From the IMG/VR virus record IMGVR_UViG_3300027971_000001: a stretch of DNA of 64,000 nt; one strand, given 5' to 3'. Under the pieces are notes generated by a model, which saw only the letters and a program-made list of their open reading frames with translations, did not search any database and was not told the DNA's origin. Positions 9,671 to 64,000 of the stretch are shown piece after piece. Each line of letters starts with the position of its first letter. The stretch's first letter is position 1. Made by a program: the position numbers and the translations under genes. This DNA is from a virus (Duplodnaviria; Caudoviricetes).

Positions 9671-9949
9671 TTACTGATTGTTCAGATACTTTTCAATCTT
9701 TGTTTTCAGTTCTGCATTTTCCTTTAACCGTTTGCGCCGTTCCAAACTTGTAATGAACAAACCCACACTGATAGGAAAGAATATTCTCAAGAAGAATTGA
9801 AGATGATCTTCTGATGTAAGCATATTAAAGTAAGTGGTGTATAATTCAGCCATTCCCCATATTGTATAAAGTATGGCTGGTATGAACAGCATACAAAAAG
9901 CTTTGTTCCAGCTTTTCATATTTTTAAAATATTCAATTAACCTGTTCAT
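9671..9949 (-). CDS. Two-TM membrane protein
   Basis: Two hydrophobic segments and a basic C-terminus. Confidence 0.6.
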   Translation of the reverse strand: MNRLIEYFKNMKSWNKAFCMLFIPAILYTIWGMAELYTTYFNMLTSEDHLQFFLRIFFPISVGLFITSLERRKRLKENAELKTKIEKYLNNQ

Positions 9950-10002
9950 TCCAAATTATTTAACAAATGTTGATTTTGATGATTATGTTTTAAATAAAAA
10001 AT

Positions 10003-10167
10003 ATGAAGAAACTTGTGTTTTGTTTAGTTTTGACTGGATGTGCAGGCAACAACAGTTATGTGGTTCATGACCCTGAAAAGAATACCAGTGAATATAATCT
10101 AATGGACAGCCCAGATGGTATGCAGGATCCTAATCTAAGAGCAAAGACTGTTATTTTTAAATATTAA
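10003..10167 (+). CDS. Small lipoprotein, 54 aa (not in ORF track)
   Basis: MKKLVFCLVLTGC lipobox; TAAATA 6 nt upstream. Confidence 0.6.
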   Translation: MKKLVFCLVLTGCAGNNSYVVHDPEKNTSEYNLMDSPDGMQDPNLRAKTVIFKY

Positions 10168-10184
10168 TTTATATAAAATATATT

Positions 10185-10367
10185 ATGCCATTCAATTTTT
10201 TAAACAAAGATAAATGCACAAGAGATTACTATTATCAAGTAACTGGTATTTGGCACAGATTAGGTAATGATCATCCTATAAAACAAGTACTTACGTCTTT
10301 AATATTTCTGGGAACACTTGGATTGATAATTCATTTGATTATAAAACTTTTTGTTAATGATTTGTAG
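10185..10367 (+). CDS. Small membrane protein
   Basis: C-terminal TM helix. Confidence 0.5.
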   Translation: MPFNFLNKDKCTRDYYYQVTGIWHRLGNDHPIKQVLTSLIFLGTLGLIIHLIIKLFVNDL

Positions 10368-10419
10368 TAGGAATAGGCTAAATTATTGTATTGAAATTTA
10401 AGGGCATGCCATCGTTTTT

Positions 10420-11292
10420 ATGAAAATAGATTACGTGTTTTCGTTTGCTAATCATTTTTATAAAGAACTTTATAAGCAGTACTTTGATTGCGTTCTTATT
10501 AATCCACGCAACGTTTATGAGTTACAGTCTGTGGATGTGACAAAGAATATTATATTTTTATTTGGAGATCCATTCACTCTCAACTATATCAATAGGAGCA
10601 ATCTATCTGGCAAGAATATAATGTTTCTAAGACGGCATGAGTTCTATGAAAATAATTTTGAACTGCTTCAAAAAAACCGTCTTAAGATTCAGCATTTCTT
10701 TACTTTAAATTCTTTTTTTCAAAAGATATTAAGAGACTTACATGGCATTGAGTCCATCATAGAGAAAAATTATCTGGACGAAGAGCTGTGGACATACAAA
10801 GAAAGAGGTCATGGCAAAGAGATTGCTTGGGTGGGTGAATTTCAGCAACGCAAATCACCGGATTATCTGAGTGAATTATTATCTTGTTTTCCAGATTATA
10901 ATATCCATTGTGCCGTTTCACCAGGCCCATCTAAACAACTATATATAGATTTTCTACAAAACTATAATTATAAGAATCTATTTCTGTATAATGATATTAA
11001 TACCCAAGAGAAAATGAACAAATGGCTAGATAATAAAAATTATCTGGTAACCACATCCATATCAGAGGGGTTGCCTAATAATGTCCTGGAGGCTTTGGCA
11101 AAAGGTATTAAGCCCATAGTGAGAGATTATCCTGGAAATATATTTAATAAATTCGCATATAAAAGTATTTCTGAATTTAATATGCATTTGTCAGACGAAT
11201 ATAATTCTCAAGAATACAGACAAATGATAGAAAAAAATTATGGATTAAAACAGTTTTGTCAATTTAGAGATAAAATTATTAATATTAAATAA
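10420..11292 (+). CDS. GT-B glycosyltransferase, GT4-like
   Basis: EX7E motif SISEGLPNNVLEALAKG. Confidence 0.8.
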   Translation: MKIDYVFSFANHFYKELYKQYFDCVLINPRNVYELQSVDVTKNIIFLFGDPFTLNYINRSNLSGKNIMFLRRHEFYENNFELLQKNRLKIQHFFTLNSFFQKILRDLHGIESIIEKNYLDEELWTYKERGHGKEIAWVGEFQQRKSPDYLSELLSCFPDYNIHCAVSPGPSKQLYIDFLQNYNYKNLFLYNDINTQEKMNKWLDNKNYLVTTSISEGLPNNVLEALAKGIKPIVRDYPGNIFNKFAYKSISEFNMHLSDEYNSQEYRQMIEKNYGLKQFCQFRDKIINIK

Positions 11293-12241
11293 AAGACTTC
11301 TGTATTTTCATATCAAATAAACATGTACATGTATTTTTTTGACAAATAGCTGGTATATCAAATAGTTTTATTCTAAGATTTTTATCTTGTTGCAAATTAC
11401 CGAAATAACGAGTACGGCATTGAGATCCCCACACTGAGCCATCTTGTTTAATTACCAAACTATTCATGCCAGTGTAACATTTTGATCCAAAAAAATTAAA
11501 GTAATTATTTGAAATAATTTTTTGACCATCAAATGCTGTTTGTTCCCCATTAAAATATTCTACAGTAATTTTATCATTATTTGTATTATAAATTTCATTC
11601 GAAGGATTTTCTTGAATATATTTTATTTGATGTTCTGTATATAAAGGAGTGAATCGTTTTTTGTAATCATTTACATCCAAGATACCTTTGTTGTTTACAA
11701 TAACTCCATCTGTTTTCATAAATTCTTTTGATGCTTTTACTGCAATATCCCAGTATTCTGGATCCATTAACACATGTATTTCAACATGTTTTTTTCTATC
11801 AAGAAAAATATTACACAACTTTTTGAAGTGATCTATTTTTGCATATCTGGGATGAAAGCTACAATACAAAATATCCATGTCATCAATTATACGATTCCAA
11901 AAATCTAAATTATTTCCAAGATTTGTAACCATAGCAATATTAAAATTTATTGATTTAAAAAATTTAATCATATCTTCAACTCCATTGTAGAAGCTAGGCT
12001 CACCCCCCGTGATAGTGACTTTTCTTTGAAGCCTGTTTGTTATAATTGGATTATCTTTAATCAGATTATCAAAAAACTTTATGTAGGTTTCTACAACTAT
12101 GTGAGGATACATTCCTTTATTAAGATAAGGCGGACAATAGCTACACCGTTGATTACACCAGCTATTAATTACAAAATTAATACTAAAACAATCATTTGTA
12201 ATGCTTTTTATGGCAGGTTTAAAGTGGTTTTGCATGTTCAC
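11285..12241 (-). CDS. Radical SAM protein with C-terminal SPASM/twitch-like cysteines
   Basis: CNQRCSYC motif, TITGGEP, C-terminal Cys cluster. Confidence 0.85.
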   Translation of the reverse strand: MNMQNHFKPAIKSITNDCFSINFVINSWCNQRCSYCPPYLNKGMYPHIVVETYIKFFDNLIKDNPIITNRLQRKVTITGGEPSFYNGVEDMIKFFKSINFNIAMVTNLGNNLDFWNRIIDDMDILYCSFHPRYAKIDHFKKLCNIFLDRKKHVEIHVLMDPEYWDIAVKASKEFMKTDGVIVNNKGILDVNDYKKRFTPLYTEHQIKYIQENPSNEIYNTNNDKITVEYFNGEQTAFDGQKIISNNYFNFFGSKCYTGMNSLVIKQDGSVWGSQCRTRYFGNLQQDKNLRIKLFDIPAICQKNTCTCLFDMKIQKSFI

Positions 12242-13025
12242 ACCTCCAGCATAATGTATTAGATTTATTGTTGGTTAGCGAATCTACAATGTGTTTGTAT
12301 GTTTTAGAATTGGTAATTTCTTCATAGGACTGTTCTATAAGATTACCCAATTTATGCTCCATACTCCAATCCATACAACAAAGATACACGTCACCATTCG
12401 GTAATAAGACATGTTGTTTTATTTTATTTGTAGAGCATTTTATGGCTATATTACAAGTGTTGTCTATTTTCTTAAATGCACTAACATTTCCAGCTCTGCT
12501 ATTCCATCGAAAATAATCAGGAGTTAAAAAAGAAATTTTTGCCCGAGTTTTTGATAATAAGGATTGTATTGAAGAGTGTGGCTCGCTTCCAAAGAAAACT
12601 ATTGCATCGCTATTCTCTAGGCTTTGCAGGCATTTTTCAACATTATGAATATAATTATTATCTATTATTAAGTTCATTGAATTATCGTTAACCGGCAAAT
12701 GTAGAATAATATTATTATACTTTCGATTTAGAATTGTATTAATATTATCTTGCGATGCTCTATAAAGAGTTGTAGATATTCGTATATAATGTCCCCTATC
12801 CTTAGAAAGCTCAACCATCTTAAAACAATCTTTATGAAAAAAAGGTTCAGAGAATCCTGTAAAATGTATTCTTGTGGAATTTGGTAATTTATTTAAAATA
12901 TAATTAAAATTTTCTAAAGATAATTTTTTTATATCTGAATCGTATTTGGATACAAAAGAGTCTTGTGGACAGTAGGAACATTTTATTCCACACCCCGCCA
13001 CAGTGGTTATTTCTAATGCATCCAT
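12219..13025 (-). CDS. Radical SAM/SPASM protein
   Basis: CGIKCSYC motif; LLPNGDVYLCCMDW...CWRC. Confidence 0.88.
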   Translation of the reverse strand: MDALEITTVAGCGIKCSYCPQDSFVSKYDSDIKKLSLENFNYILNKLPNSTRIHFTGFSEPFFHKDCFKMVELSKDRGHYIRISTTLYRASQDNINTILNRKYNNIILHLPVNDNSMNLIIDNNYIHNVEKCLQSLENSDAIVFFGSEPHSSIQSLLSKTRAKISFLTPDYFRWNSRAGNVSAFKKIDNTCNIAIKCSTNKIKQHVLLPNGDVYLCCMDWSMEHKLGNLIEQSYEEITNSKTYKHIVDSLTNNKSNTLCWRCEHAKPL

Positions 13026-13041
13026 ATATAGTATATAGTAT

Positions 13042-13737
13042 ATGCTTAATATTGTTCTACTAGCAATTAGTTATCGCTCTGGTTCTAATTGTCTTAGATC
13101 AATATTAGACCAGAATAAAGAAATATCTGCCAAGGGTGAAATATTCAGACCCTATTTTAAATTAAACAATGTTAATCGTGACTGTCTTCTAAATGAGATT
13201 GACACACGTTTGAATAGATTTAGGGAAAGAAGTGATAAGAATAAAGTTTTTTTATATACTAGTGTTGTAGATGAAATATTAAAGCTAGAAGAGTATGATT
13301 TGATCCGTAGCATTTTACCCAATAAATCAATCTTTCTATATCGGGAAGATCTCTTGGAACAGTACTGTTCAGTTAAGGTAGGAAAAGTAGCGGGTATCTA
13401 TCAAGATACAGAGCAATCCAAAAAAGAGAAACAAAAAATAAGAATAGAGTTTAATCTTAATGAATATTTAAATTTTGTTGCTAGAATGAATCGGCATAGA
13501 GACTTCTTTTTTGCGTTTTATAAGAAATATAAGATAAATTATATTATTGTAGAATACAAAAGCATAATAAAACGGATAGAAGAAATATTTAAATTTTTAG
13601 ATTTAGAATATAAAGGCGAGCTACCAATTACTATTAAATCTGAAAGTCGTCCATTGCACGAAATTATAATTAATTACTCAGATATACCGAATAACATAGA
13701 TCATAGATTAGTAGTTGATGACATTATTTCTGCTTAA
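13042..13737 (+). CDS. Sulfotransferase, Stf0-like
   Basis: YRSGSNCL PAPS-binding loop, KGEIF, LYREDLLEQYCS. Confidence 0.75.
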   Translation: MLNIVLLAISYRSGSNCLRSILDQNKEISAKGEIFRPYFKLNNVNRDCLLNEIDTRLNRFRERSDKNKVFLYTSVVDEILKLEEYDLIRSILPNKSIFLYREDLLEQYCSVKVGKVAGIYQDTEQSKKEKQKIRIEFNLNEYLNFVARMNRHRDFFFAFYKKYKINYIIVEYKSIIKRIEEIFKFLDLEYKGELPITIKSESRPLHEIIINYSDIPNNIDHRLVVDDIISA

Positions 13738-14616
13738 TGTTCTCCTATCAATCGGACAGACCTTACAGATATCATTTTGCTTTCTATTTGCTAGAATTTT
13801 AGCAAAAAAATCTTTTGATTTCTCTGAATTAAATATCTCGCTAATAGTTTGCTTGTTTGCGTCGCCTATTATTACTTCTCCCTGATAATCATGACAACAA
13901 GGATTACATTCCCCGTTCCAATTTATAACAAATGAACCGGAGAAAATCGAGCAACTGTTGGGTATTGCTTCGGTAACTTTTTGCTGTGTCTGTTTATTAA
14001 TTTGCTCTGTTTCAGTATATTCTGCCATATTAAAATTAGGCAGCTTGTAATATATGTTATCGTATAACCCTGAGAATTTATTTTTAATATTGACCAGATC
14101 TTGTGTATTGTAAGAAAATAAGACTGTTTGTATCTTTATTTTAGGTCGAGAAGGCATGCTACCATATTTGTCAAAATAGTATTTTATTCCCTCATGTATC
14201 TTGTCTAAATCCACACCCTTTCTATATGTTGCATTTAATTCTTTTGTTGATCCATCAATACTAACAACACACTCATTCAGTTTGCTCTTGGCTAGTAAAT
14301 CTATATCTTCTTGTTTGTAGAAGACTAATCCGTTTGTAGATGTCCTGTGGTACACATTCTCTGGTATCATTTGATAGAGCTGGGACCACCTGGGGTGCAG
14401 AAAAGGCTCTCCATAATTGAAAGAGACTATTTGCACTTTGTGATTCAATTCTCTTACCTCATTCATTATTTTTTGAAATAATTCATTGGAAATGAACCCT
14501 TTTTTTCTATCCAAAGAATCAGAACCTGTTGGACATAGAGGGCATTTGGCATTACACGTGTTGGTAAGCTCTATCATGATGGAGCTAAGATGTCTATTCA
14601 TATATGGGATGAACAA
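13708..14616 (-). CDS. Radical SAM/SPASM protein
   Basis: CNAKCPLC motif, NYGEPFLHP, INWNGECNPCCHD...CKVC. Confidence 0.9.
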   Translation of the reverse strand: MFIPYMNRHLSSIMIELTNTCNAKCPLCPTGSDSLDRKKGFISNELFQKIMNEVRELNHKVQIVSFNYGEPFLHPRWSQLYQMIPENVYHRTSTNGLVFYKQEDIDLLAKSKLNECVVSIDGSTKELNATYRKGVDLDKIHEGIKYYFDKYGSMPSRPKIKIQTVLFSYNTQDLVNIKNKFSGLYDNIYYKLPNFNMAEYTETEQINKQTQQKVTEAIPNSCSIFSGSFVINWNGECNPCCHDYQGEVIIGDANKQTISEIFNSEKSKDFFAKILANRKQNDICKVCPIDRRTLSRNNVINY

Positions 14617-15325
14617 ATTTATGTTCTTTTAATTTTAATTTTGCTTCTTTTTCATCTATAAATTCATCATAAAAATAACGGGCCCTTCCTTTCATATAAA
14701 TTATAGAATAAAATTCAGCGTGATCATATAACTCTATATTTAGATCTTGGCAAGCTATGCCCATGAGTAATTCTGTTGAGAGAATGTATTCACCAGGTAA
14801 TCCTCTTGCCAGGAAACTGTTTATTCTACTTGTTAAAAATTTATCATCTTCAAAATACTTTTCTTTTTTGAATGTTTGAATTACATCAGATCCAATTCCA
14901 AAGATTCCATTTTGTATAAATCTGGGTCTTATCAGATTTATAAGTTTATTTCCATCGTATATCTTTTTATCAAGAGTAGATTCAAACATTGTTCCAAACA
15001 CAGTATTCTTTAACTCATTACCCAGCTCTATAGTACCCTGCACTCTTGAATCTGGATCTGCCTTTATTACAACATCTGTGTTGAGATCATCATACACATT
15101 GATTATATTGCGAAAGAAAGCACCTGGTGTTGCATTGGTATGTGATCTATCAAATAGATAATATATAAGATTATTATCGTGGCAGTATTTTCTTATATCT
15201 GGATCATCATTTCCATCGCTCATAACAGATATGGGACTATTAGGATAATATTTTTGTATCTGTAGAGCACTTGTTTTTAACAAATCAAAATCCTTATACA
15301 CGGGTACTATGAAACCTATATTCAT
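14594..15325 (-). CDS. GT-A glycosyltransferase-like, GT2-type N-terminus
   Basis: FIVPVYKD N-terminus; KADPD DxD motif. Confidence 0.6.
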   Translation of the reverse strand: MNIGFIVPVYKDFDLLKTSALQIQKYYPNSPISVMSDGNDDPDIRKYCHDNNLIYYLFDRSHTNATPGAFFRNIINVYDDLNTDVVIKADPDSRVQGTIELGNELKNTVFGTMFESTLDKKIYDGNKLINLIRPRFIQNGIFGIGSDVIQTFKKEKYFEDDKFLTSRINSFLARGLPGEYILSTELLMGIACQDLNIELYDHAEFYSIIYMKGRARYFYDEFIDEKEAKLKLKEHKFVHPIYE

Positions 15326-16233
15326 ATTTGTAATACTTTCTTAAATATATTATTATTGTAGTTTCTTGCATTATTTTGAAATGCTGCCAACTCTTCTGTC
15401 AGTATACTGTACTTATTTTCATTATTCAAAATATCCATAATGTTACAATCGGCAGAATCAATTTGCTTCAAGCTATTATATTCTAGGAATTTCTTATTGG
15501 CAATTAGAGGTATTTTATTGGCTATACTATGTGTGAGAGATTCTGATGTCTTGATGCTAGTATAATCCACTTTGGAGCTATCGTAAGGTATGAGTAAAAA
15601 CTTGAACCCTGCAATTTGTTTGTAAAAATCTGCATGGCTGCACAGGTCTATTGTTTTTGCGTTGCTTGAATGTATTTGCTTAATAGTCTCTTTGGATCCT
15701 TCACCTAGTAGCTTTATGCTGCAATTATTTTTTTGCATAAAAGAACTTATATATTCTATAGATATCTTATTTTCAAAAAAACGAGAGGTTACTCCAATCA
15801 TATTTTCCTTGCATGCATTTAAATTTAGCGGTGTTTCTGTTTGAAAGAAGTAGTTTTCGCTAAATGACTTTTCATATACTCCGTTGGCTATATTTTTAGA
15901 GAGTGGAAAATACTTTTTAATTATGCTCTCACCATGGCTCAATGGTCTATGATGTACAAATATAAAATTATTTGTCTCTCGAAAAACAGGATTAGTATAA
16001 AACTCAGGAATTTTATTGTTAGATTCAAGTGCAGTTATTACTATAGAAACATCAAAGCACGGCACCTGTGTCAGAGGTAATTTATATAAATTACACAGTT
16101 CTTTGAAATTATATTTGTCACACGGATTATGATGGTAGAACATGGGCGATAATCCCAAACACTGTAAAGATTTGTATATCGATAGTGCTGTGGCATGGTG
16201 GTATTCTGTATTAACAATGATCCCTATTCTCAT
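15322..16233 (-). CDS. Putative glycosyltransferase-like protein
   Basis: GT-B-like C-terminal segment (LLIPY...SESLTHSIANKIPLIA); operon context. Confidence 0.45.
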   Translation of the reverse strand: MRIGIIVNTEYHHATALSIYKSLQCLGLSPMFYHHNPCDKYNFKELCNLYKLPLTQVPCFDVSIVITALESNNKIPEFYTNPVFRETNNFIFVHHRPLSHGESIIKKYFPLSKNIANGVYEKSFSENYFFQTETPLNLNACKENMIGVTSRFFENKISIEYISSFMQKNNCSIKLLGEGSKETIKQIHSSNAKTIDLCSHADFYKQIAGFKFLLIPYDSSKVDYTSIKTSESLTHSIANKIPLIANKKFLEYNSLKQIDSADCNIMDILNNENKYSILTEELAAFQNNARNYNNNIFKKVLQI

Positions 16234-17009
16234 TTATATTTCTCGTATAAGTTTTTTAACGTAGATGTTATCTCATTTGGATCTTCCCCCGCTTTCGATA
16301 GCAAAGAGAATACAAATGAACTAAAACATTTTTTTGATTCAGAATATATCCACGGTTTACTATTACCGTGAAAATGTAGTATAGCTATATCTTTTATTGT
16401 ATCTTTTGTTACTTGGCTTGTTACTGTGTTATATTTTTGAGGTAGAAGGGTCACAGTATCGCGAAAATATAGATTAAATGGGGACTGATCATTATACCAT
16501 CTTCTTTTTTTAGCAAGATTTATCAAATTGTCTTTATGTTTTTTATCTATTATCTTTCGAGATAAGATCATGAGACCACAATTAAAGAAATTCTTTTCAA
16601 GATAATTTAAATCCAGAAGCATGTCGGGGTATTTTCTACAAGCTGCAAAATCACCAGAAAAAAGTAATAGATCTTTTATATCCTGTAATACAAGCATGTC
16701 TGAATCTATCATAACGATTTTGTCGTAGTTAAGATAAGACAACTCGAAAACATCAAATCTATAATACAGATTATAATTGTATTCTTCTTGTATGCCCTTG
16801 CATTGGTTATAATCTTCTTTTTTAACATGAATTATTTTAATTCTACTATATATTTTGGATAGTTCAGAAATAGATTTATCTGATAGATTTCCATCAGAAA
16901 GAATTAGATAATCCAGGTCAAACCATGGATTATTAGTTAGTAAGCTATTGAGCAAAGCTCTCATTGCAGGCATGAAATCATCATTTAGAGCAGTAAAAAA
17001 AGCTGTCAT
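16230..17009 (-). CDS. Glycosyltransferase family 8
   Basis: YRF, IDSDMLV, FNCG, NDQ, HFHGNSKPW motifs. Confidence 0.9.
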   Translation of the reverse strand: MTAFFTALNDDFMPAMRALLNSLLTNNPWFDLDYLILSDGNLSDKSISELSKIYSRIKIIHVKKEDYNQCKGIQEEYNYNLYYRFDVFELSYLNYDKIVMIDSDMLVLQDIKDLLLFSGDFAACRKYPDMLLDLNYLEKNFFNCGLMILSRKIIDKKHKDNLINLAKKRRWYNDQSPFNLYFRDTVTLLPQKYNTVTSQVTKDTIKDIAILHFHGNSKPWIYSESKKCFSSFVFSLLSKAGEDPNEITSTLKNLYEKYK

Positions 17010-17851
17010 ATGCTATCTTTATAATGCAAGAATTGCTCAATATCAATCTTTAGCTGCTTGTATTCCTGTTTTATTTGTATAATCCCGTTGTCTCGTTTCA
17101 ACATTAACAAAGGATCAAAACGATTATTTTCATATATTTTATATCTGTTTATATAATTGCGTTTCTCAAGTTCTCCATGATAATTATGATAAACTACTCC
17201 TTGTAAATATCCTGTTTTTAAATTTTTACATTTATTATAATATTCTTGGATGGTGTGGTAATGATTTTCTGAATAAGGGTAATATGCAAATTTTTCCTTA
17301 GCAAAGCAGCTTTGGGGGTAAGGTATCATTTTTTCTTGAATAAAAGACCGGGCCATGATCGCATCACCGGTGCCTGCTATATTCATATCATACAATCCTC
17401 CAAGATGCAGAAAAACACTTTTTTTCATGGCCCAAGCAAATCCACAATGGCCGTGTCGGTTATTCACTTGCTTGGCGTAAACAAAACCGGCTACAGGATT
17501 TAATGGTTTGTTGTTTTTGTCCAGATGATAACAAGAATGAAACAATTGAAGCACATCATATCCTTCTTCAAATTTTTCCAAAGCTTTTGAATACCAATCA
17601 AGATCCTGAAAACAAACATCATTATCTATCCAAAAAACATGTTCTGTATCCTGAATATGATTCAGGATGGCCAGATTCAATAAATTTTCTTTTAAAAAGA
17701 TTTTATCCTCGCTTTTGAATGTGTGATCAAAAGATATACCATCCTCCTGTATGCCGGAAACAATTGAAAAAGGGTATTTTTTCTTAAAAGTTTCTATCGA
17801 CTCCTTCCTGTTTTTATTATTGAAGAAGTTGAAGTAGCTTGTAAAAATCAT
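17006..17851 (-). CDS. GT-A glycosyltransferase-like protein
   Basis: WIDND DxD motif; start moved to MIFTS, a TAATG overlap with the fibre gene stop. Confidence 0.65.
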   Translation of the reverse strand: MIFTSYFNFFNNKNRKESIETFKKKYPFSIVSGIQEDGISFDHTFKSEDKIFLKENLLNLAILNHIQDTEHVFWIDNDVCFQDLDWYSKALEKFEEGYDVLQLFHSCYHLDKNNKPLNPVAGFVYAKQVNNRHGHCGFAWAMKKSVFLHLGGLYDMNIAGTGDAIMARSFIQEKMIPYPQSCFAKEKFAYYPYSENHYHTIQEYYNKCKNLKTGYLQGVVYHNYHGELEKRNYINRYKIYENNRFDPLLMLKRDNGIIQIKQEYKQLKIDIEQFLHYKDSI

Positions 17852-20800
17852 TATCCCTGGGCTTCTGTCCAAGAAACTTTACACAATGCTTGATTGGTGG
17901 GAGAAGATGATACAGGACGAACAAACACTGTTAAAATATCAGGTCCATTTGGATACACATTGTTACCGCCCAATATGGAATTGCCCAGATTTCTTATCAA
18001 ATCGATAGGATAATTTGTAACTTGATTTCTTCCTGCATCTTGTTCGGCTGCCAAGAAACCCCCTATAACAACCCCAGCACTTACCGGCACTGTTCTAAGA
18101 CTGGGGGTGCTATGATCAAGATATTGTGAAATGCTACCATTGCCTGCGTTAATCCAATTGCCTGAAACTGTCCACAAACTGCTTTCACAATTGAGTCTTA
18201 TAAACACATTCAGTGCCTGACGTGTGACAATCTGCACGTCATTCAATACTAATATGGAACGATTAATTAGATTTCGAATTCCCACAAAACTTCCTATTCC
18301 ATAATCTACGGCAGGCGCAAGACGAATAGAAATAAGGGGATAATCTCGGTTATCCAATAATGGAAGAGCTGCAGCAGATGTGCCTGCCGTGAACAAATAT
18401 GATTTGTCCGGGGTGAATCCCCCGTCCATGATCACGGATGTGCCCCAATGTGAAAGAGCCGGAGAACAATTTTGATTGAATGAAAATAAATTGTTATAAG
18501 GATAAAATTGATGATAAGGAACACTCACAAGATTGCCAGCATTTCTTTGTTTTATTGTTAAAACCTGTTCACCGGTGCTGGTGGTTCTTATTTTATTGTA
18601 GCGCAAATATTCATAATCATATATTAATGTGCCGCTATTCGGTATGAAAAACGTTGCGCTGGATGGCACAGAAATTGTGGAGGCCAGCGGGGAAATGGTT
18701 TGGGTTGTAGCAATTTCTTTTCCTGTTAACAAATCGTATGCTTTATAGAATGCATTGTTTGTTTCAAGATTGTTTATTATATCAAAACTTGCTGTTGTTG
18801 CTTGACCGCTTTCTGTTAAAGGGGTTGTAGGCGGGGTAAAATTACCGTTTCTGTATTGGGCAAATCCGCTTGTTACGCGAATATCATCAAAATAACAATC
18901 AGCTGCATTTCCATAATACACACCGCCTAAATATAGATTTTCATATCCAAAACTATTAAAATTAGTTGCTGAAAGAACAGATATGCCATCCACGAACAGA
19001 TCGCAACGTCCATTCAATCTTTGCAACACCATATGATGCCATCTGTTAGCAGAAAGAACATTGGTTGTGGAGGGACCAATAATATTTACACTATATGCAT
19101 CAGCCAATCCCATGGATACAGTGGTGGCACTTGTGGTGCTTGTGGCAGTTTTATCTGCAAATATACCTAAACCAGCTCTGCCATAATATGCAGGTGCTCC
19201 CACAGTAAAAATTGTGTTTGTGTCTGAGTAGGCTTGACTAACTGGAAAAATAAATCTATTAAAGTAAACAAAACATTCAATTGTAAAATCTGACCCAAAT
19301 CCCGTATAATTTCCATATATATATGATCCATAGTAATAGGGGTTTGCTTTAACACTATGAGTGCCAAATTTTACTGGAGATGTGTAATATGTGTAACCAC
19401 TCCCACCGCCGAAACTACTCCATTTGTTGCTGGAAGTTGCTGAGTTAGCATTTGTGTTATCACAGTTATACAATGCTATCACTGCATTAGCTGAATTGGA
19501 ATACCGGAACAAACTTGCACTCAATCTGGGTGTTGTAACAACATAAGGTCCATTTATGTTACTAGACTTTCTCACTTCTACTGTTCTTGGTTCAGACAAG
19601 TCGTTCAATGTGTTATAAGCAGTGAGATTGATTCGATCTGCTTGCAGAATATATCCTATTTTGGGTTTGTTTATGATCTCAAACCTTCCTGGCAAATTGC
19701 CGGAACGCATGTATGCTTCCAGATTAACATTGTTATTTTTCATTTGATGACAGAAAATAATGCTGCCATCCTTGGATCGAACACCCCAGCGTATTCTACC
19801 TGCACCATACCAACTGTAATCAAAATACAACATCTGCATTTTGTTTAAATCTATGGTGTATCCAGAAGCACCTGTGCCATCTATTTTATCCAGATTAAAT
19901 TGATCCTGTGAAATGCGCATTTCCTCTGTTTTTGCATAACGAATAGCATTAACAGTAGAACCTATATATTTTGGAACTATTGTTAAAGTTGTATCACTGT
20001 TGATATCACTCACATAATAACTCATGCCTCGAATAACAATATAATCGCCTGTCCGGATTTGAGATAAAAATTTGGTATTGGTGCCTGTCACAACAGTGCT
20101 ACCGGCCACAACACTTACAGTTCCTGTCATGTTGTTTGTGCTGGTTTTTCTTCCTACATAAAGTTTGTTTCCATCATATTCAAAAAAGATTCCGTTTTGC
20201 TCATCAAACAATCCTGTTCGAACTGATGCATCATTCCAATCCATAACATCTACTTTTCCAAGACCATCCGGATTCAAGTCTGTTGGTGCTGTAAGAGTGT
20301 TAAATTGTGTGGTTAAACTGCTGGATACAGGCAACAAAACTGTGAATGTATTTTGATCACCAACAGAAGCAACTGTGAATGTTGTATTATATCGATTAAT
20401 TCCTCCTTTAACTGTAAGATCCCTGAGACGCACTGATGCACCTTGCAAATAGGTTGAAGGATTGGCAAAACCATGAGGTTGTTCTGTTGCAATTGTAATC
20501 ACATAATATGATGATAAATTTTGATTAAAAGATGTTGCATCAACTGATATGCTGCGCATGTCATAGCTGGGTTTGAACAATAACCCTGTGCTAAACAATA
20601 TGCTTTTTCCTGATTGATAACGGAAATAATTTCTTGTTTGACGAATAATTTGGGAATATGGAGAGTTATTAGCAGTTGTTATTTGCACTCCACCATCTGT
20701 TGCCCTGTGCAAAGCGTAACCTTCAGGTCGCACATACAAACGAGTGTTAGTAATATTCAGGCTTGTATTGCTTGCCGGAAACAAACCTGCAGTCAAATCA

Positions 20801-21477
20801 GATTGATATGTGAATGTTGTAGGTGAAATAATATTTTTTACTGTAAATGTTCCTGTGGTATAATCATTTGTGCGGGTAGAATCAACAACCCATATGGGTT
20901 GATTCAAAAAGAAATTATTAGGATTTGTGGTTGTTACCTGAACATCTGCAATTCCAGAAAGAGACACCATGCTAGTAAAAGGTATGGAAGCAGTATCATA
21001 AAATCCTCCGTTATAAACTGTTGTTTCAGCCGTTGCATAATTAACGTTGGGACGAATAACCAATCTTTTTCGAGGAGACATGGTGTATTGTCGAGCATTT
21101 TGGGCTGCTGTAATCAGGGCAACACCATCTGCCAAACCATTTAGAGTGTTAACAAACACAAGAGGTGTTCCCACTGTAAAAGAAAGACTGGGGGTAAATG
21201 TGCTGACCAAGTTTAATGTGAGACCACCTGCGGCTGAAGTGGCTGATAAGCTTTGAATTTGATCTGCCATTAAAACAGTATCATCTGTTTTAAGAAATAC
21301 TGAAGGAGTATTATTCATCAATTCCAACGTTTCCCACTTGGGAGATTGAAGACTATATTCAAAATCCGTATCAATCAAAGACTGAGGATTGCTTGTACGG
21401 ATTCTTTCTACTGCATCATTCTGTACTGGCTTTATTATTCGGTTGCCAATATTTGCACTATTATATGGAAAGCTCAT
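17851..21477 (-). CDS. Large tail fibre/structural protein, paralog 2, with ConA-like/LamG insert
   Basis: Shared SLIDTDFEY...RYQSGK...WYGAG...SHWG...SWTEAQ scaffold; FTIECFVYF...WHHMVLQR...FDDIRVT LamG signature; start moved to 21477 (ATGA overlap). Confidence 0.75.
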   Translation of the reverse strand: MSFPYNSANIGNRIIKPVQNDAVERIRTSNPQSLIDTDFEYSLQSPKWETLELMNNTPSVFLKTDDTVLMADQIQSLSATSAAGGLTLNLVSTFTPSLSFTVGTPLVFVNTLNGLADGVALITAAQNARQYTMSPRKRLVIRPNVNYATAETTVYNGGFYDTASIPFTSMVSLSGIADVQVTTTNPNNFFLNQPIWVVDSTRTNDYTTGTFTVKNIISPTTFTYQSDLTAGLFPASNTSLNITNTRLYVRPEGYALHRATDGGVQITTANNSPYSQIIRQTRNYFRYQSGKSILFSTGLLFKPSYDMRSISVDATSFNQNLSSYYVITIATEQPHGFANPSTYLQGASVRLRDLTVKGGINRYNTTFTVASVGDQNTFTVLLPVSSSLTTQFNTLTAPTDLNPDGLGKVDVMDWNDASVRTGLFDEQNGIFFEYDGNKLYVGRKTSTNNMTGTVSVVAGSTVVTGTNTKFLSQIRTGDYIVIRGMSYYVSDINSDTTLTIVPKYIGSTVNAIRYAKTEEMRISQDQFNLDKIDGTGASGYTIDLNKMQMLYFDYSWYGAGRIRWGVRSKDGSIIFCHQMKNNNVNLEAYMRSGNLPGRFEIINKPKIGYILQADRINLTAYNTLNDLSEPRTVEVRKSSNINGPYVVTTPRLSASLFRYSNSANAVIALYNCDNTNANSATSSNKWSSFGGGSGYTYYTSPVKFGTHSVKANPYYYGSYIYGNYTGFGSDFTIECFVYFNRFIFPVSQAYSDTNTIFTVGAPAYYGRAGLGIFADKTATSTTSATTVSMGLADAYSVNIIGPSTTNVLSANRWHHMVLQRLNGRCDLFVDGISVLSATNFNSFGYENLYLGGVYYGNAADCYFDDIRVTSGFAQYRNGNFTPPTTPLTESGQATTASFDIINNLETNNAFYKAYDLLTGKEIATTQTISPLASTISVPSSATFFIPNSGTLIYDYEYLRYNKIRTTSTGEQVLTIKQRNAGNLVSVPYHQFYPYNNLFSFNQNCSPALSHWGTSVIMDGGFTPDKSYLFTAGTSAAALPLLDNRDYPLISIRLAPAVDYGIGSFVGIRNLINRSILVLNDVQIVTRQALNVFIRLNCESSLWTVSGNWINAGNGSISQYLDHSTPSLRTVPVSAGVVIGGFLAAEQDAGRNQVTNYPIDLIRNLGNSILGGNNVYPNGPDILTVFVRPVSSSPTNQALCKVSWTEAQG

Positions 21478-25277: not shown

Positions 25278-25360
25278 ATATGTTATTTATTCATATAATA
25301 ATATATTCTACATATAAAGAAGATATGAAAATAAAAGAATATTATATATTATATATAATA

Positions 25361-37186: not shown

Positions 37187-37816
37187 TTAATATAAAATCT
37201 TTTGTTCCAGTTTAAACAATAAACTGGGAATTCTTTGGCTATATTTATGGGCCAATCTTAAAGCTAATTTTACAGGCTTGTTATAAACATTATTCAAGAT
37301 TTTATAAGATAGTTTGCTTACCTTTTCGCTATGAAGTCGCATTTCTTCTGCCCACTTATGTTCCACCATTAATCTTTCAGAGTAAGTCGTATCATCTTCT
37401 CGTTTAGCATTTACCAATTTTATGCTTTTAACTTTTCCTTTGATTACATTGGCTTTATAATCAATGCTGTAATAACGACCATCTTGCTTTGCTTTTTCAT
37501 AAGCATAAAACTCCACATCACCCGTATGATTTGTTTTTTCCCATATTCTGCTGTTTACTTTTAATCGAAAAGATCCGAATTGTTTACCATATGTTTTAAT
37601 ATCCTGCTTTTTTTCTTCAGGAGTGCTGTCCCGGTATTCAATACGTTCCACAAACAAATCTCCGTTCTTTTTAATTGTATAGGTAAGAAGTGCATTTTCC
37701 AAATCTTTGGTTTGATATTCCAATCGTGTCAGATCGAAATCCTTTCCCAGAAATTTTTCAATCAGCTTGTTTGTAGGCAACTTGGTTTCTACTTTGATGG
37801 TGTCGAACATTCCCAT
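37187..37816 (-). CDS. Phage hypothetical protein
   Basis: MGMFDTI...YQTKD motif. Confidence 0.7.
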   Translation of the reverse strand: MGMFDTIKVETKLPTNKLIEKFLGKDFDLTRLEYQTKDLENALLTYTIKKNGDLFVERIEYRDSTPEEKKQDIKTYGKQFGSFRLKVNSRIWEKTNHTGDVEFYAYEKAKQDGRYYSIDYKANVIKGKVKSIKLVNAKREDDTTYSERLMVEHKWAEEMRLHSEKVSKLSYKILNNVYNKPVKLALRLAHKYSQRIPSLLFKLEQKILY

Positions 37817-38790
37817 GGTATTTCTCCTTTTTGTTTATTTAGCGGTAAAATATAACTTTCAACTGTCTGTTTCAAATATTGTAAAAATCTTTGCTCATCA
37901 TATTTTGGTAAATTAACAATACTACGTGTTTTTGCACTATTCAGTTTATAACAAATATCATGACCAAGCCGATCCTCCACAAAACTGATAAGACTTTCTG
38001 GTTTGTTTAATATTTTTAAAATATGTTTAGCCAAAGAAATGTTATCTAATCTATAGGCAGAACCAATATTATATATTTCTCCAATTTTACCCTTTTCACT
38101 GAGATCAATAATGGCATTGGCATGATCATCCACATATATCCATTCCCTCACATTCATTCCATTACCATAAACCGGTATGTTTCTGTCATTCAAAGCACTG
38201 TTTAAAACAACCGGTATGAATTTTTCAGAATGTTGTCCAGGCCCATAGTTGTTGCAACACCGAGTAACTATCACTGGAAATTTGTTGGTGTGATAAGAAG
38301 CCAGAACAATAAGATCTGAACTTGCCTTCGTCGAGCTGTATATGCTACTAGGTTTGAGATGGTCTGTTTCCTTGCTTGGATCTGAATCAATATTCAACGA
38401 TCCGTACACCTCATCAGTGCTGACATGCATAAACTTTTTATATTTGTTTTGAAGACCAAAAAGAATATTGAATGTACCTGTTACATTTGAATCTACAAAA
38501 CCATTAGGAGAAGTGATGCTTCGATCCACATGACTTTCAGCTGCAAGATGAAACACACAATCTATCGGTTCAGAAACAGTAGCACAAAACACACCTAGCC
38601 ATTTTCTATCGGATAGATCCAGTTCAATAAATTCAACATCATAGGATCTAAGACTTTTTTTGTCAGACCCTATTCCAAGCTTGTCCAAAACAATAATATG
38701 AGAATCTGGATACCTGTTGCGCAGATTCTTGACCAGATGTCGGCCAATGAATCCTGCTCCTCCTGTTACAATAAATGTCATTTTAGCCAT
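37789..38790 (-). CDS. rfbB: dTDP-glucose 4,6-dehydratase
   Basis: VTGGAGFIG, HLAAESHVDRSI, STDEVYG, YSSTK, NNYGP, REWIYVDDHA. Confidence 0.93.
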   Translation of the reverse strand: MAKMTFIVTGGAGFIGRHLVKNLRNRYPDSHIIVLDKLGIGSDKKSLRSYDVEFIELDLSDRKWLGVFCATVSEPIDCVFHLAAESHVDRSITSPNGFVDSNVTGTFNILFGLQNKYKKFMHVSTDEVYGSLNIDSDPSKETDHLKPSSIYSSTKASSDLIVLASYHTNKFPVIVTRCCNNYGPGQHSEKFIPVVLNSALNDRNIPVYGNGMNVREWIYVDDHANAIIDLSEKGKIGEIYNIGSAYRLDNISLAKHILKILNKPESLISFVEDRLGHDICYKLNSAKTRSIVNLPKYDEQRFLQYLKQTVESYILPLNKQKGEIPWECSTPSK

Positions 38791-60171: not shown

Positions 60172-60947
60172 CGACGGCTATTATAATAATCAGTTAGCAA
60201 TTGTAAAGAGTTATCTGATATTTTAACTTTATCTTTCAAGCGTTCTAAGTTTCTGGCTTCTGTATTTCTTCCCAAAATGTTATAATTTATAAAAAAAGAA
60301 GTGTCTGTTATGTATCGGCTTGCTCTATTATTTTCAAATTTATGTTTAAGATAATGTTCAGCATTCCATATGTCAGGATAATTGAAATAATTGCTATCAA
60401 AAATTTCACGCAATCTTTGATGGGAACAAACAAAACAGGAATCATCAAAACCCCAAAGTCCACTGTCCCGAAAGTCAAAGGTGTCTGTATCATAAAGTTT
60501 AAATGATTCTGTTTTATATAACACATTTCTATGCTTCTCGGTCCATTTACCCTTTTCCACAAGATATTCGATTTTGTATGAAAGATTGATCATTTCATAA
60601 TCGGTATTGAAAACCATATTTTTCAAATCATCCCGGTTTTGTTCTGTTGCTTCATAAGAAAAAGTATCGTCCTGATAAAAGAAAAATTTGTTAATTTGTT
60701 TGCTTTCCAGAAAATTCATCAGGTAACGAATACAATCGCAATAGGTATTATTACTAAAAACAAATAAAGTGGAATTCTTTAGTATCTTGTTGTTCAAAAC
60801 ATAATTTTTAACCTCATCAGAAGGATTATGAAGCGATATGATGTTCATATCAAAATTAGAAATGAAGTCCTGAAAATACCTATCCTCTGCCCTTATCTTA
60901 AGCAAAGGCAAACGATCACCGTATGTTTGAAAAAAAGATACGTTCAC
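60168..60947 (-). CDS. Putative glycosyltransferase-like protein
   Basis: FFFYQDD motif; sugar-cluster context. Confidence 0.45.
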   Translation of the reverse strand: MNVSFFQTYGDRLPLLKIRAEDRYFQDFISNFDMNIISLHNPSDEVKNYVLNNKILKNSTLFVFSNNTYCDCIRYLMNFLESKQINKFFFYQDDTFSYEATEQNRDDLKNMVFNTDYEMINLSYKIEYLVEKGKWTEKHRNVLYKTESFKLYDTDTFDFRDSGLWGFDDSCFVCSHQRLREIFDSNYFNYPDIWNAEHYLKHKFENNRASRYITDTSFFINYNILGRNTEARNLERLKDKVKISDNSLQLLTDYYNSRR

Positions 60948-61870
60948 CCTGCGCTTTTTTTAATATTATCTGCTGCTGCTATTGCCACGTTGCTGTCATT
61001 CTGTTCCAAGTGTCGCATGTTTGTTGGATTGAATCCTCGTTCCATGGGATAATCCCCAGGATATTCCAGCATGAATGTGGCATCAATATTATGCAAAGGA
61101 ATGTCTCTCATGGTATTTCTTACATGATGATCTACATAAAACTCGGTGGATTCATCATTTCCTGCTAGCTTTGCATAGTCCTCTACCAAATTAAACATTT
61201 CACAATAACGACGCATCACTTCATGATTACCCATGGCAAATCGGTCATTTAATTTTCCATCCCGAGATACCGTAGAAAGATAATGTTGAGGTGTTAATAA
61301 TACATTCTGTTTTGCTACAAACTCCAAATCAGCATCCTGAAGACAATCAAACCAAAATTCATCTGGTCTTCCTCGCACAATCACATCATACTGAAAACCA
61401 TTCTTCTTTTCATATTCTTCAATAAGATCATAACATCCTTTTATATTATAAAGTTGTCCCAAAACATGATCGGCCACTTCCATTCCCCAACCATGACTTA
61501 CATGAACTGGATACTTGTGGTGCATCACTTCCGGAACCGGTATCTTGATTTTGCTACGATCCTGAATGTTAAATGCTCTAATATTGTGATATCCCATGAC
61601 AGTTTCTGAATCTTTTTCAATACCATCTTTGCTACACCATCCATGAACAAAAACATCTGCTTTGATTGGATCGATCATGAATTTGTTGGCCCATTCCTGA
61701 GTTATCGCAAAATTCCGTAGTCCACCCGATAAAAGAACTGCAATTTTAAGGTTGGTTTTGGTTTCTGGAACATTTATTTTAAAAAACTCCCTATTAACAA
61801 ATTGATAAACATATCGCATTCTGCTTCGGGTTGCATGCCGGACTTGATCCTGCATTTGTTCGGGTGTCAT
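60944..61870 (-). CDS. Putative glycan-related protein
   Basis: LLSGGLRNF...DVFVHGW...YDVIVRGRPD...NDRFAMG pattern seen in capsule-locus hypotheticals. Confidence 0.55.
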   Translation of the reverse strand: MTPEQMQDQVRHATRSRMRYVYQFVNREFFKINVPETKTNLKIAVLLSGGLRNFAITQEWANKFMIDPIKADVFVHGWCSKDGIEKDSETVMGYHNIRAFNIQDRSKIKIPVPEVMHHKYPVHVSHGWGMEVADHVLGQLYNIKGCYDLIEEYEKKNGFQYDVIVRGRPDEFWFDCLQDADLEFVAKQNVLLTPQHYLSTVSRDGKLNDRFAMGNHEVMRRYCEMFNLVEDYAKLAGNDESTEFYVDHHVRNTMRDIPLHNIDATFMLEYPGDYPMERGFNPTNMRHLEQNDSNVAIAAADNIKKSAG

Positions 61871-62578: not shown

Positions 62579-63003
62579 TTTTCTATAATATCTGAACAGA
62601 TACCAGCGCATCCTGAAACAAAATCATTATTAAGCTCGGGCATTACTGAAATACTGTTTTTAACAGGTTGTTTTCCGGGATAAACCCAAATATATCCATG
62701 GCTTGTAAGAGTCATGGTATCATTTTCATGCCAAAAATAATTAAGCTCTTTGTGTTTCTGCATTAATTCTATTGAAGCAACGTCTTTGCAATGCACCCAA
62801 ACATGTTCTTTTCTTTCTTTAAGCCAATTTAATCCCACAGGATAAACCGGATTGTCATGGCCAAGATGAACGATTCCTTCTATTGTATGAACGTCTATTT
62901 CACAATCATATCCATTTTTTAATACATTATCGATAACATGCGGATTGTTTTCCGTTTCGGAATTCTTTCCGTTTAGATTACCTCGATGCGATATAAGAAT
63001 CAT
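62554..63003 (-). CDS. Truncated glycerophosphodiester-phosphodiesterase-like protein
   Basis: ISHRGN...EN...CEIDV...LGHD...VHCK. Confidence 0.65.
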   Translation of the reverse strand: MILISHRGNLNGKNSETENNPHVIDNVLKNGYDCEIDVHTIEGIVHLGHDNPVYPVGLNWLKERKEHVWVHCKDVASIELMQKHKELNYFWHENDTMTLTSHGYIWVYPGKQPVKNSISVMPELNNDFVSGCAGICSDIIENYKTLDFL

Positions 63004-64000
63004 TCTGGACGATTTTTAAGATAATAATCCAAATCTTCAGGTGTGCCCAATCCCCACATCTTTTCAATATTGAATACTTTTATCTTTTTATTGTCTTCTA
63101 TTGCCTGGTTGAATACTGGACAAACATAAAATTCATTATTGACCCGGATATTTTTATGTATCATTTGTTCTGCATATTTGACATAATCAGAACCTTTTTT
63201 CCAATAATAAACACCCACAGTTGCAATATTACTGATTGGATTTTTCTCGGCCACTTCACAAACAAATCCATCATCATTCACCTTGGCATAACTCCATTTA
63301 GGATGGGTAGAATTAAAAGTCAGTATTCCTGCATCAATATCATCTGCAATCATAGAATACATGAATTCGTTGCTGTCCCATTCAATAAACTGATCAGAAT
63401 TGGCTATAATGAGGCTTTTATCATCGTTAAAATACTCTTTAGCGAGAAGAGTGGTACAAGCAGCACCCTCAGTGATTCCTTCTGTTTGTACAATCTTACA
63501 ATTAGGAGATATTATATTTAAAAGATTTTTTAAATTATATTTTTCATAATGTTCCTTTTGTACTATGAAAACATGTTCTGCATCAATATTCAAGTTTTCA
63601 ATAACAACCTGAATCATGGGCTTTCCTCGCACCTCAATAAGAGGTTTCGGGAATGTATAGCCTGCTTTTTCAAATCTGGATCCTGCTCCTGCCATTGGAA
63701 TCAGAACCCTAACATCTCCTCGACCTTGCCATTTTGGTTTAATCATATGTGTTTCCTTTCGGTTAATGAATTCTTTTAATTTATCATAATTGAGATCAGA
63801 ACTATTTTTTACTGGAAAAAGATATGCTCCAGATCTTTGTGCTGCTTTTCTTCCTATGTGTGAATCTTCAATGATAACAGTTTCATCCGGACTTGCATGA
63901 CACGCCAGCATAGCCCTTAGATACATTTCTGCACTAGGTTTTGGATTGTTTACGTCTTCATTTGAAAACAAATAATCAATATATTCAAAAAAACCTTTTC
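63000..64000 (-). CDS. HAD phosphatase / sugar-phosphate nucleotidyltransferase fusion, 5' end beyond the window
   Basis: HAD segment (SNEDV...KPSAEMY...IIEDS) followed by IPMAGAGSRF...PKPLI...IANSDQ; frame open to the edge. Confidence 0.85.
   Translation of the reverse strand, partial: KGFFEYIDYLFSNEDVNNPKPSAEMYLRAMLACHASPDETVIIEDSHIGRKAAQRSGAYLFPVKNSSDLNYDKLKEFINRKETHMIKPKWQGRGDVRVLIPMAGAGSRFEKAGYTFPKPLIEVRGKPMIQVVIENLNIDAEHVFIVQKEHYEKYNLKNLLNIISPNCKIVQTEGITEGAACTTLLAKEYFNDDKSLIIANSDQFIEWDSNEFMYSMIADDIDAGILTFNSTHPKWSYAKVNDDGFVCEVAEKNPISNIATVGVYYWKKGSDYVKYAEQMIHKNIRVNNEFYVCPVFNQAIEDNKKIKVFNIEKMWGLGTPEDLDYYLKNRPE

Follow-up and report, generated by a model that had tools for sequence, protein, structure and literature searches.

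The stretch of DNA analyzed here, referred to as the window, comprises 64,000 nt of the IMG/VR record IMGVR_UViG_3300027971_000001 and derives from an uncultured freshwater T4-like phage, with a T4-type portal gene (PF07230, 1e-104) and a gp15 homologue in the window; the contigs of its relatives also carry T4-type gp23/gp21. Directly behind two of its large fibre-type genes lies a cassette of nine genes, numbered g1 to g9 by rising coordinate, whose products include glycosyltransferases (GTs), radical S-adenosylmethionine (SAM) enzymes and a sulfotransferase of the 3'-phosphoadenosine 5'-phosphosulfate (PAPS) type. The initial annotation had counted nine contiguous genes here, and the nine open reading frames (ORFs) at 10420-17872 are indeed real genes, as judged from ratios of nonsynonymous to synonymous substitution (dN/dS). 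Our analysis points, tentatively, to a late, cytoplasmic system that builds and edits a glycan. The features of the locus are as follows.

10391..10423 (approximate), plus strand: ten-codon remnant of a mini-DegT aminotransferase gene, still ATGA-coupled to g1
10420..11292, plus strand: g1, short GT4/GT-B glycosyltransferase, 290 aa (PF00534 7e-9; E-x7-E)
11285..12241, minus strand: g2, radical SAM protein of its own family with one four-Cys C-terminal cluster, 318 aa
12219..13025, minus strand: g3, twitch radical SAM enzyme, the second of the BtrN-like kind, 268 aa (hhalign match to the g5 family)
13042..13737, plus strand: g4, PAPS-type sulfotransferase near NodH, 231 aa, antisense to the operon
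13708..14601, minus strand: g5, BtrN-like twitch radical SAM enzyme, 297 aa from its ATG (profile against BtrN 4e-28)
14594..15325, minus strand: g6, GT-A/GT2-like lead only, 243 aa (N-terminal beta-alpha-beta pattern, with SDGNDD and DPD)
15322..16233, minus strand: g7, GT-B-like lead only, 303 aa (language-model neighbours)
16230..17009, minus strand: g8, retaining glycosyltransferase of family GT8, 259 aa (PF01501 2.5e-21)
17006..17851, minus strand: g9, GT-A-like lead only, 281 aa from its ATG, member of an unannotated viral family
17851..21477, minus strand: fibre 2, with a weak ConA/Laminin_G_3-like segment
21474..25277, minus strand: fibre 1, 1267 aa, paralog of fibre 2 (phrog_5838 5e-173, and tail-fibre phrog_1980)
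25284..25289, minus strand: TAAATA late-promoter box, 6 nt upstream of the fibre 1 start and the sole such box upstream of the minus-strand chain

The CxxxCxxC motif is invariant in g2, g3 and g5, and all three proteins have C-terminal Cys residues, in agreement with what had been noted at first; their scores against PF04055 are 52.2 bits for g5, 29.5 for g2 (equal to the cut-off) and 28.6 for g3 (just under 29.5). In an alignment of 19 relatives, g5 conserves C16, C20 and C23 together with four auxiliary Cys at a spacing of 18/44/3. The g5 family profile matches BtrN at 4e-28 across both domains, followed by the sugar decarboxylase BlsE at 8e-17 and, as the first peptide-modifying enzyme, a match at 3e-10. 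BtrN carries Cys16/20/23 and a four-Cys auxiliary cluster and oxidises an aminocyclitol alcohol to a ketone (PMC9012708). As the 2-deoxy-scyllo-inosamine dehydrogenase of butirosin synthesis (4M7T), it shares with g5 the same 16/20/23 Cys, a matching auxiliary spacing and a full-length profile match; unlike the BtrN system, the phage enzyme is embedded among GTs, has at most ~25-30% identity and is accompanied by no 2-deoxy-scyllo-inosose synthase. The g3 protein has its auxiliary Cys at 197, 216/217, 259 and 262 (spacing 19/42-43/3), aligns with the g5 family over its full length (hhalign, 99% probability, E 2e-18) and matches only BtrN in the PDB (E 0.005).

The third enzyme, g2, shares only the core with g3 and g5, and its four conserved C-terminal Cys are spaced 20/25/5; because of this different spacing and core-only similarity it is twitch-like but not BtrN-like. 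The SPASM model PF13186 matches g3 and g5, and g2 has no SPASM match. Since just four C-terminal Cys are conserved in each of the three proteins, each is predicted to hold one auxiliary cluster of the twitch type, and the SPASM label given initially has to be replaced, as the seven-Cys, two-cluster motif of a full SPASM domain is not present. Judging from these profiles, g3 and g5 are BtrN-like twitch enzymes of the sugar-acting kind, for which oxidation of a secondary alcohol is possible, and equally epimerisation (of the NeoN/HygY type) or another reaction. The g2 gene shows a further peculiarity in that its counterparts in all relatives are no more than 62-67% identical to it, compared with 85-98% for the flanking genes in one close relative (L001). 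These values suggest that g2 alone was exchanged for another allele within the cassette.

The sulfotransferase g4 is an outlier of its Pfam family, matching Sulfotransfer_3 on its own at E 0.065 only. A word-based search with g4 recovered near copies only, and an exhaustive profile search recovered 125 distant relatives. Among 54 aligned relatives, 44 match Sulfotransfer_3 (PF13469), 24 match Sulfotransfer_1 and 18 match the Stf0 model (PF09037), which g4 itself does not match. Five residues (R12, G14, E33, R101 and S110) are invariant across the 54 sequences; they correspond to the 5'-phosphosulfate loop and the 3'-phosphate motif of PAPS binding, with E33 as the candidate catalytic residue. 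The family profile finds the lipopolysaccharide (LPS) sulfotransferase NodH (9VKI) in the PDB over its full length at 5.7e-31, and Stf0 (1TEX) at 1e-7. An AlphaFold2 model based on the 54-sequence alignment reached a mean predicted local distance difference test score (pLDDT) of 91; a model from four near-identical sequences was uninformative (pLDDT 50). Foldseek placed the former beside tyrosylprotein sulfotransferases (TPST), the CurM sulfotransferase domain, Stf0 and heparan 3-O-sulfotransferases, with probability 1.0. Assignment of g4 as a P-loop kinase was considered and rejected, as kinases rank under sulfotransferases in Foldseek and the sequence profile is decisive.

Profile and model together therefore confirm the predicted sulfotransferase fold of g4 that the initial annotation had proposed. 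Its description as Stf0-like has to be amended, since, by sequence, the solved structure closest to g4 is that of a NodH-type carbohydrate sulfotransferase. The likeness to rhizobial NodH and to Stf0 extends to the PAPS-binding motifs (RSGS loop and R...S), the invariant Glu, and the match in both profile and fold; g4 differs from them in being phage-borne, in its distance from the Pfam models and in having protein-tyrosine sulfotransferases among its structural neighbours as well.

Five GT or GT-like genes had been claimed for the cassette, and for two of them the assignment is confirmed. The GT4 enzyme g1 scores 35.9 bits against Glycos_transf_1 (PF00534, cut-off 26.4) in a match confined to its C-terminal half, and the E-x7-E motif, formed by E216 and E224, is invariant. 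The GT8 enzyme g8 scores 76.8 bits against PF01501 (cut-off 24.3), with an invariant DSD at 102-104 and HFHGNSKPW at 212-220 in the places of the DxD and HxxGxxKPW motifs. For g6, g7 and g9, Pfam, NCBIfam, PHROG and PDB sequence searches, family profiles included, gave no significant match. These three genes are kept as leads because their GT likeness comes from language-model neighbours and DxD-type motifs. The atlas neighbours of g7 in language-model space are Glyco_trans_1_4 and AGT clusters, including the T4 alpha-glucosyltransferase cluster, and the best PDB match of its family profile is the streptococcal Gtf3/Nss, weak at E 0.066. The g6 gene is confined to the lineage of the window, and no similarity was found between it and the GT2 gene beside a cyanobacterial g5 relative. 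The g9 family is large, with 148 IMG/VR relatives (many of them giant-virus metagenome-assembled genomes, and including L036-L103), invariant WxDxD and HxxHG..R.Y..R motifs, and Glyco_transf_7C/GT2 among its atlas neighbours; a deep alignment of 31 g9 sequences had no significant match in the PDB, Pfam or PHROGs. Being shallow, the alignments gave no significant hhalign match when g7 was compared with g1 or when g6 and g9 were compared with g8.

The cassette is physically coupled to the fibre genes. The true start of fibre 2 is the ATG at 21477, which forms an ATGA overlap with the fibre 1 stop (the mechanical ORF start at 21537 lies 60 nt too early). Fibre 2 and g9 are joined by TAATG, each of the junctions g9/g8, g8/g7 and g7/g6 is an ATGA, and g6 and g5 overlap by 8 nt. 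A TAAATA box is found 5-7 nt ahead of the start in 12 of the 46 window genes, including fibre 1 and other structural genes, and the same scan of 46 gene starts found none inside the cassette or ahead of fibre 2. The exact T4 late box TATAAATA occurs 10 times in the window against 8.2 expected, so that this octamer is not enriched; the informative late signal is the shorter TAAATA placed 5-7 nt before starts. Because of the gene overlaps, and because the lone TAAATA box precedes fibre 1 with none in the cassette, a single late transcript running from fibre 1 to g5 is the simplest reading of the locus. This supports the earlier suggestion that the fibres and cassette genes probably share one late transcript, and the chain of overlapping genes proposed with it is borne out from fibre 1 as far as g5. 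The chain ends there, and g3 and g2 follow only past the antisense g4. In two relatives without g4 (L007 and L008), g5, g3 and g2 are contiguous on one strand, and it therefore seems most likely that g3 and g2 belong to the same unit. The two remaining genes are on the plus strand, with g1 convergent on g2 and g4 antisense between g5 and g3. The starts of g3 and g4 diverge across just 16 bp (13026-13041) of TATA-rich near-repeat (ATATAGTATATAGTAT), so any promoter of either gene must sit inside the other.

Comparison with related phages shows which parts of the cassette are constant. Across 14 IMG/VR contigs of two lineages the backbone g9-g7-g3-g2-g1 is kept, always directly behind fibre 2, down to 35-55% protein identity. 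Eight of these contigs belong to the lineage of the window and hold the cassette in the same order; the six of the second lineage (L023 and L031-L035) read fibre 2 > g9 > g7 > (g4 antisense) > g3 > g2 < DegT < g1. In L008 and L023 the gene on the other flank of the cassette encodes the major capsid protein. Around the backbone the content varies, giving six presence/absence genotypes among the 14 contigs. The triad of GT8, g6 and the BtrN-like g5 occurs only in the lineage of the window, and g4 is missing from L007 and L008, with only a remnant of 34 residues persisting in L032. A mini-DegT aminotransferase of 202-208 aa (PF01041 6e-16), which retains the pyridoxal phosphate lysine and the aspartate, lies upstream of g1 in all eight of eight close relatives (e.g., L001:14200-14805). 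The window has lost this gene through a clean deletion of ~580 bp between TTAA(A/G)G microhomologies. Contigs from four runs in four studies span the deletion, so the DegT-deleted form is a real circulating genotype. All ten genes, the nine of the window plus the mini-DegT, are under purifying selection (dN/dS 0.03-0.21).

Relatives of single cassette genes also occur in other contexts. Cellular g5 relatives adjoin a GT2 gene in cyanobacteria and Patescibacteria, in the latter also Wzx and a short-chain dehydrogenase/reductase (SDR) sugar enzyme, and one follows a pilin gene. A 58%-identical g5 copy has as neighbours another enzyme of this type, a GT4 and a 1417-aa surface protein (fn3/Laminin_G_3), and a 38% copy belongs to a Wzm/Wzt glycan cluster in which several radical SAM genes occur; in Chloroflexi, the partners of g5 relatives are a larger SPASM enzyme and an ABC-2 transporter. 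Relatives of g3 lie upstream of an SDR epimerase/dehydratase in six viral contigs. More than 25 IMG/VR contigs (L190-L220) carry arrays in which four to nine radical SAM genes, alternately g2-like and g5-family-like, follow one another; four of these contigs also carry the mini-DegT (E 2e-43). An unrelated 145-kb contig (L188:198-11317) carries a 1264-aa ORF and behind it, co-directional, a g9-family gene, a sulfotransferase gene, a g2-like radical SAM gene, another g9-family gene, a 192-aa ORF and a second sulfotransferase gene; by gene content this is an independent repeat of the g9-family/sulfotransferase/g2-like trio. A last viral scan, sulfotransferase included, returned only relatives already known. 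Since the backbone recurs, as do the associations among g2, g5, g9, DegT and sulfotransferase genes, the synteny check that had been suggested finds conserved co-occurrence in both phage lineages and, to some extent, in phages unrelated to them.

Based on this enzyme set, we propose that the genes form a late, cytoplasmic cassette that builds and edits a glycan, and that its target is probably virion proteins, above all the presumably co-transcribed fibres. We hold this reading tentatively, as one that falls a little short of evenly balanced. Its established ground is the identity of six of the nine genes, together with the coupling, conservation and purifying selection; what the enzymes do, in which order and to which acceptor, we infer. 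None of the nine proteins has a 19-residue window above a Kyte-Doolittle mean of 1.3, the measure used for membrane helices, and Pfam finds no flippase (Wzx), polymerase (Wzy), ABC exporter, Gtr-type component or priming transferase in the cassette, which argues for cytoplasmic chemistry on a soluble or peripherally accessible acceptor. Virion proteins are favoured because the cassette is probably co-transcribed late with the fibres and always sits behind fibre 2, and because cellular relatives have pilin and surface-protein genes as neighbours.

In the proposed pathway, the transferases (GT8 and GT4, with g6, g7 and g9 as putative members) would assemble a short oligosaccharide from nucleotide sugars. 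The g3 and g5 enzymes would then abstract a sugar C-H, turning a secondary alcohol into a ketone or epimerising it without NAD or O2, and the mini-DegT, present in most relatives and deleted in the phage of the window, would convert the keto group to an amine. Dehydrogenase and DegT-family transaminase also occur together as BtrN and BtrS in 2-deoxystreptamine synthesis. Finally, g4 would add sulfate from host PAPS, and gain and loss of tailoring genes among relatives could give rise to differing types of virion glycan. The window holds further sugar genes, namely an SDR NAD-dependent epimerase/dehydratase (37789-38790, minus strand, 2e-56) and a HAD-nucleotidyltransferase fusion (63000-63971, minus strand) adjoined by a DUF7796 gene at 60944-61870; given the first two, the phage presumably supplies some of the sugar precursors itself. 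The unusual, possibly sulfated and radical-modified glycan suggested in the initial annotation is thus consistent with a glycan-type enzyme set that includes a carbohydrate-type sulfotransferase and BtrN-like, probably sugar-acting enzymes; this applies to two of the three radical SAM proteins, g2 being a family of its own.

Several observations weigh against a virion glycan. Late transcription is read from the sequence only, and g1 and g4 lie on the opposite strand with no recognisable late box. The GT nature of g6, g7 and g9 is a matter of leads, one g2 relative follows an ART-PolyVal gene with no sugar genes alongside, and synteny with the fibres in two related lineages may be mere inheritance. 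The composition of the fibres gave nothing diagnostic, and they have no Ser/Thr-rich acceptor tail of the kind found in mycobacteriophage proteins. GT8, GT4 and NodH-type enzymes are classic families of LPS-core synthesis and LPS sulfation, active at the cytoplasmic face without membrane helices, and for this reason the argument from soluble proteins does not speak against host LPS as a target.

The serious rival is therefore a late change to the host surface, in which the cassette enzymes would alter an envelope glycan (LPS core or O-chain, capsule, S-layer or pilin glycan) and perhaps block adsorption of progeny or competitors to infected cells and debris. The LPS-type families of g8, g1 and g4 suit such a role, which is also the published reading for GT and radical SAM genes in the fibre region of pelagimyophages (PMC7029224), and relatives of g5 are found in cellular polysaccharide clusters with Wzx or Wzm/Wzt. 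However, unlike the Gtr or Wzx/Wzy modules that modify host O-antigen, the cassette has no membrane flippase or transferase component, nor any exporter gene or other membrane protein, and late timing would leave little time for a change of the surface. On balance, we consider remodelling of the host envelope rather doubtful.

Radical chemistry on peptides, DNA modification and synthesis of a free metabolite all appear less likely. The majority of SPASM/twitch enzymes modify peptides, and g3 and g5 do have Pfam SPASM matches, so the twitch enzymes could cross-link or epimerise fibre residues in a maturation like that of ribosomally synthesised and post-translationally modified peptides, with the transferases adding a simple glycan alongside. 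The Chloroflexi g5 relatives beside a larger SPASM enzyme and an ABC-2 transporter would fit this, but no precursor-peptide gene was seen, the neighbouring GT, SDR and DegT genes indicate sugars, and the profiles favour sugar enzymes (for g5, BtrN at 4e-28 and BlsE at 8e-17 against 3e-10 for the best peptide-modifying enzyme; for g3, BtrN only), which makes peptide chemistry distinctly unlikely. The combination of BtrN and DegT is also the logic of aminocyclitol antibiotics, and an adjacent DegT-family/radical SAM pair in a cyanomyovirus has been read as ‘antibiotic synthesis genes’ (PMC12801897). The cassette might accordingly make a free small molecule, such as an aminoglycoside-like or sulfated glycoside or an unusual nucleotide sugar; yet it holds five transferase-type genes but no cyclase, nucleotidyltransferase or exporter, and its linkage to the fibre genes is tight, so we regard this as very unlikely. 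Lastly, T-even and other phages glycosylate modified DNA bases, and the cassette of this T4-like phage could hypermodify phage DNA with a tailored glycan, as the T4 alpha-glucosyltransferase cluster among the language-model neighbours of g7 would allow (compare Pyle et al. 2024). We think this the least probable of the alternatives: the cassette has no AGT/BGT Pfam match and sits in a late structural operon away from replication genes, and no thymidylate-synthase-type (hydroxymethylase) gene was found in four relative fragments, each just 10-39% complete.

The reading as a glycan-building cassette can be set against several described systems. Zaragoza-Solas et al. 2020 reported a hypervariable tail-fibre region of T4-like pelagimyophages with GTs, GT8 being the commonest, and radical SAM cassettes, and read it as serving modification of the host O-chain (PMC7029224). 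The window resembles this pelagimyophage/cyanomyophage host-recognition cluster in belonging to a T4-like aquatic phage and in having GT and radical SAM genes of variable cassette content among fibre genes. It differs in that the phage is distant and the set includes a NodH-type sulfotransferase and a mini-DegT, and in that BtrN-like twitch enzymes are resolved here, an enzyme-level analysis that is absent from that work. Interchangeable radical SAM modules were described in T4-like Campylobacter phages by Timms et al. 2010 (PMC2853527). Multi-radical-SAM clusters of large phages, with enzymes of the NF033640 N_Twi_rSAM type and with CP220 and CPt10 as the Campylobacter examples, are the counterpart of the arrays of g2-like and g5-family-like genes on IMG/VR contigs described above; the cassette of the window is a small version, transferase-dominated, with three radical SAM genes and a sulfotransferase. 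A 2025 paper on a cyanomyovirus lists the adjacent DegT-family/radical SAM pair mentioned above (PMC12801897).

For glycosylation of the virion itself, the closest parallel is the modification of mycobacteriophage capsid and tail-tube proteins by phage GTs (Freeman et al. 2023, as cited in PMC12619734). There, soluble phage GTs encoded beside structural genes are likewise thought to act on virion proteins in the cytoplasm. That system has two or three GTs, with no radical SAM enzyme or sulfotransferase, and its acceptors are the C-terminal tails of the capsid and tail-tube proteins; the fibres here have no tail of this kind. None of the four reports (PMC7029224, PMC2853527, PMC12801897 and PMC12619734) resolves the enzymes, includes a sulfotransferase or tests a product. 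The initial view that the combination is undescribed consequently stands in part: GT and radical SAM genes beside T4-like fibres were already known (PMC7029224), and it is the addition of a sulfotransferase and of BtrN-like twitch enzymes that we did not find described in the literature searched.

Phage particles are commonly treated as bare protein. To our knowledge, proof of virion glycosylation exists just for a few mycobacteriophages and for giant viruses of algae and amoebae; in no case did it involve sulfate or sugars edited by radical SAM enzymes. We can envisage that the fibres carry a radical SAM-edited, sulfated oligosaccharide, and that gene gain and loss in co-circulating lake phages generates virion ‘glycotypes’ comparable to O-antigen serotype variation in bacteria, affecting host range or escape from recognition by hosts or grazers; this more specific proposal is possible but on the doubtful side. 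If such cassettes do decorate fibres, an abundant class of aquatic phages would tune adsorption, stability or recognition through glycans, and a role would be found for the many radical SAM genes of large phages that are so far unexplained. The relatives without DegT, the sulfotransferase or the triad amount to a natural knock-out series and make the system experimentally attractive. The enzymes are also attractive for biochemistry and glyco-engineering because they are small and soluble (a 297-aa BtrN-like putative dehydrogenase or epimerase, a 231-aa sulfotransferase and, in relatives, a 202-aa mini aminotransferase).

With regard to the source phage, the window holds three large paralogous fibre-type genes, all matching phrog_5838. 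The portal protein is ~32% identical to cyanomyovirus portals, indicating a distant relationship, and a DNA similarity search of 50,697 phage records gave zero matches, whether with the cassette or with 24 kb of structural genes. One relative of 82 kb is 39% complete according to CheckV, which implies a genome of ~200 kb. The sequence of the window recurs in freshwater metagenomes from many studies between 2017 and 2025. The G+C content is 0.29-0.32 in the cassette (10000-18000) and 0.38-0.39 in the adjoining fibre genes; the cassette is also under the window average, which is consistent with a separate origin or with different codon usage.

Upstream of the cassette, on the plus strand, a 65-aa ORF (9873-10070) has a lipoprotein signal with the lipobox LVLTGC and is followed by a 60-aa ORF (10185-10367) with one hydrophobic stretch. 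These two ORFs could encode spanin-like or exclusion-type small proteins.

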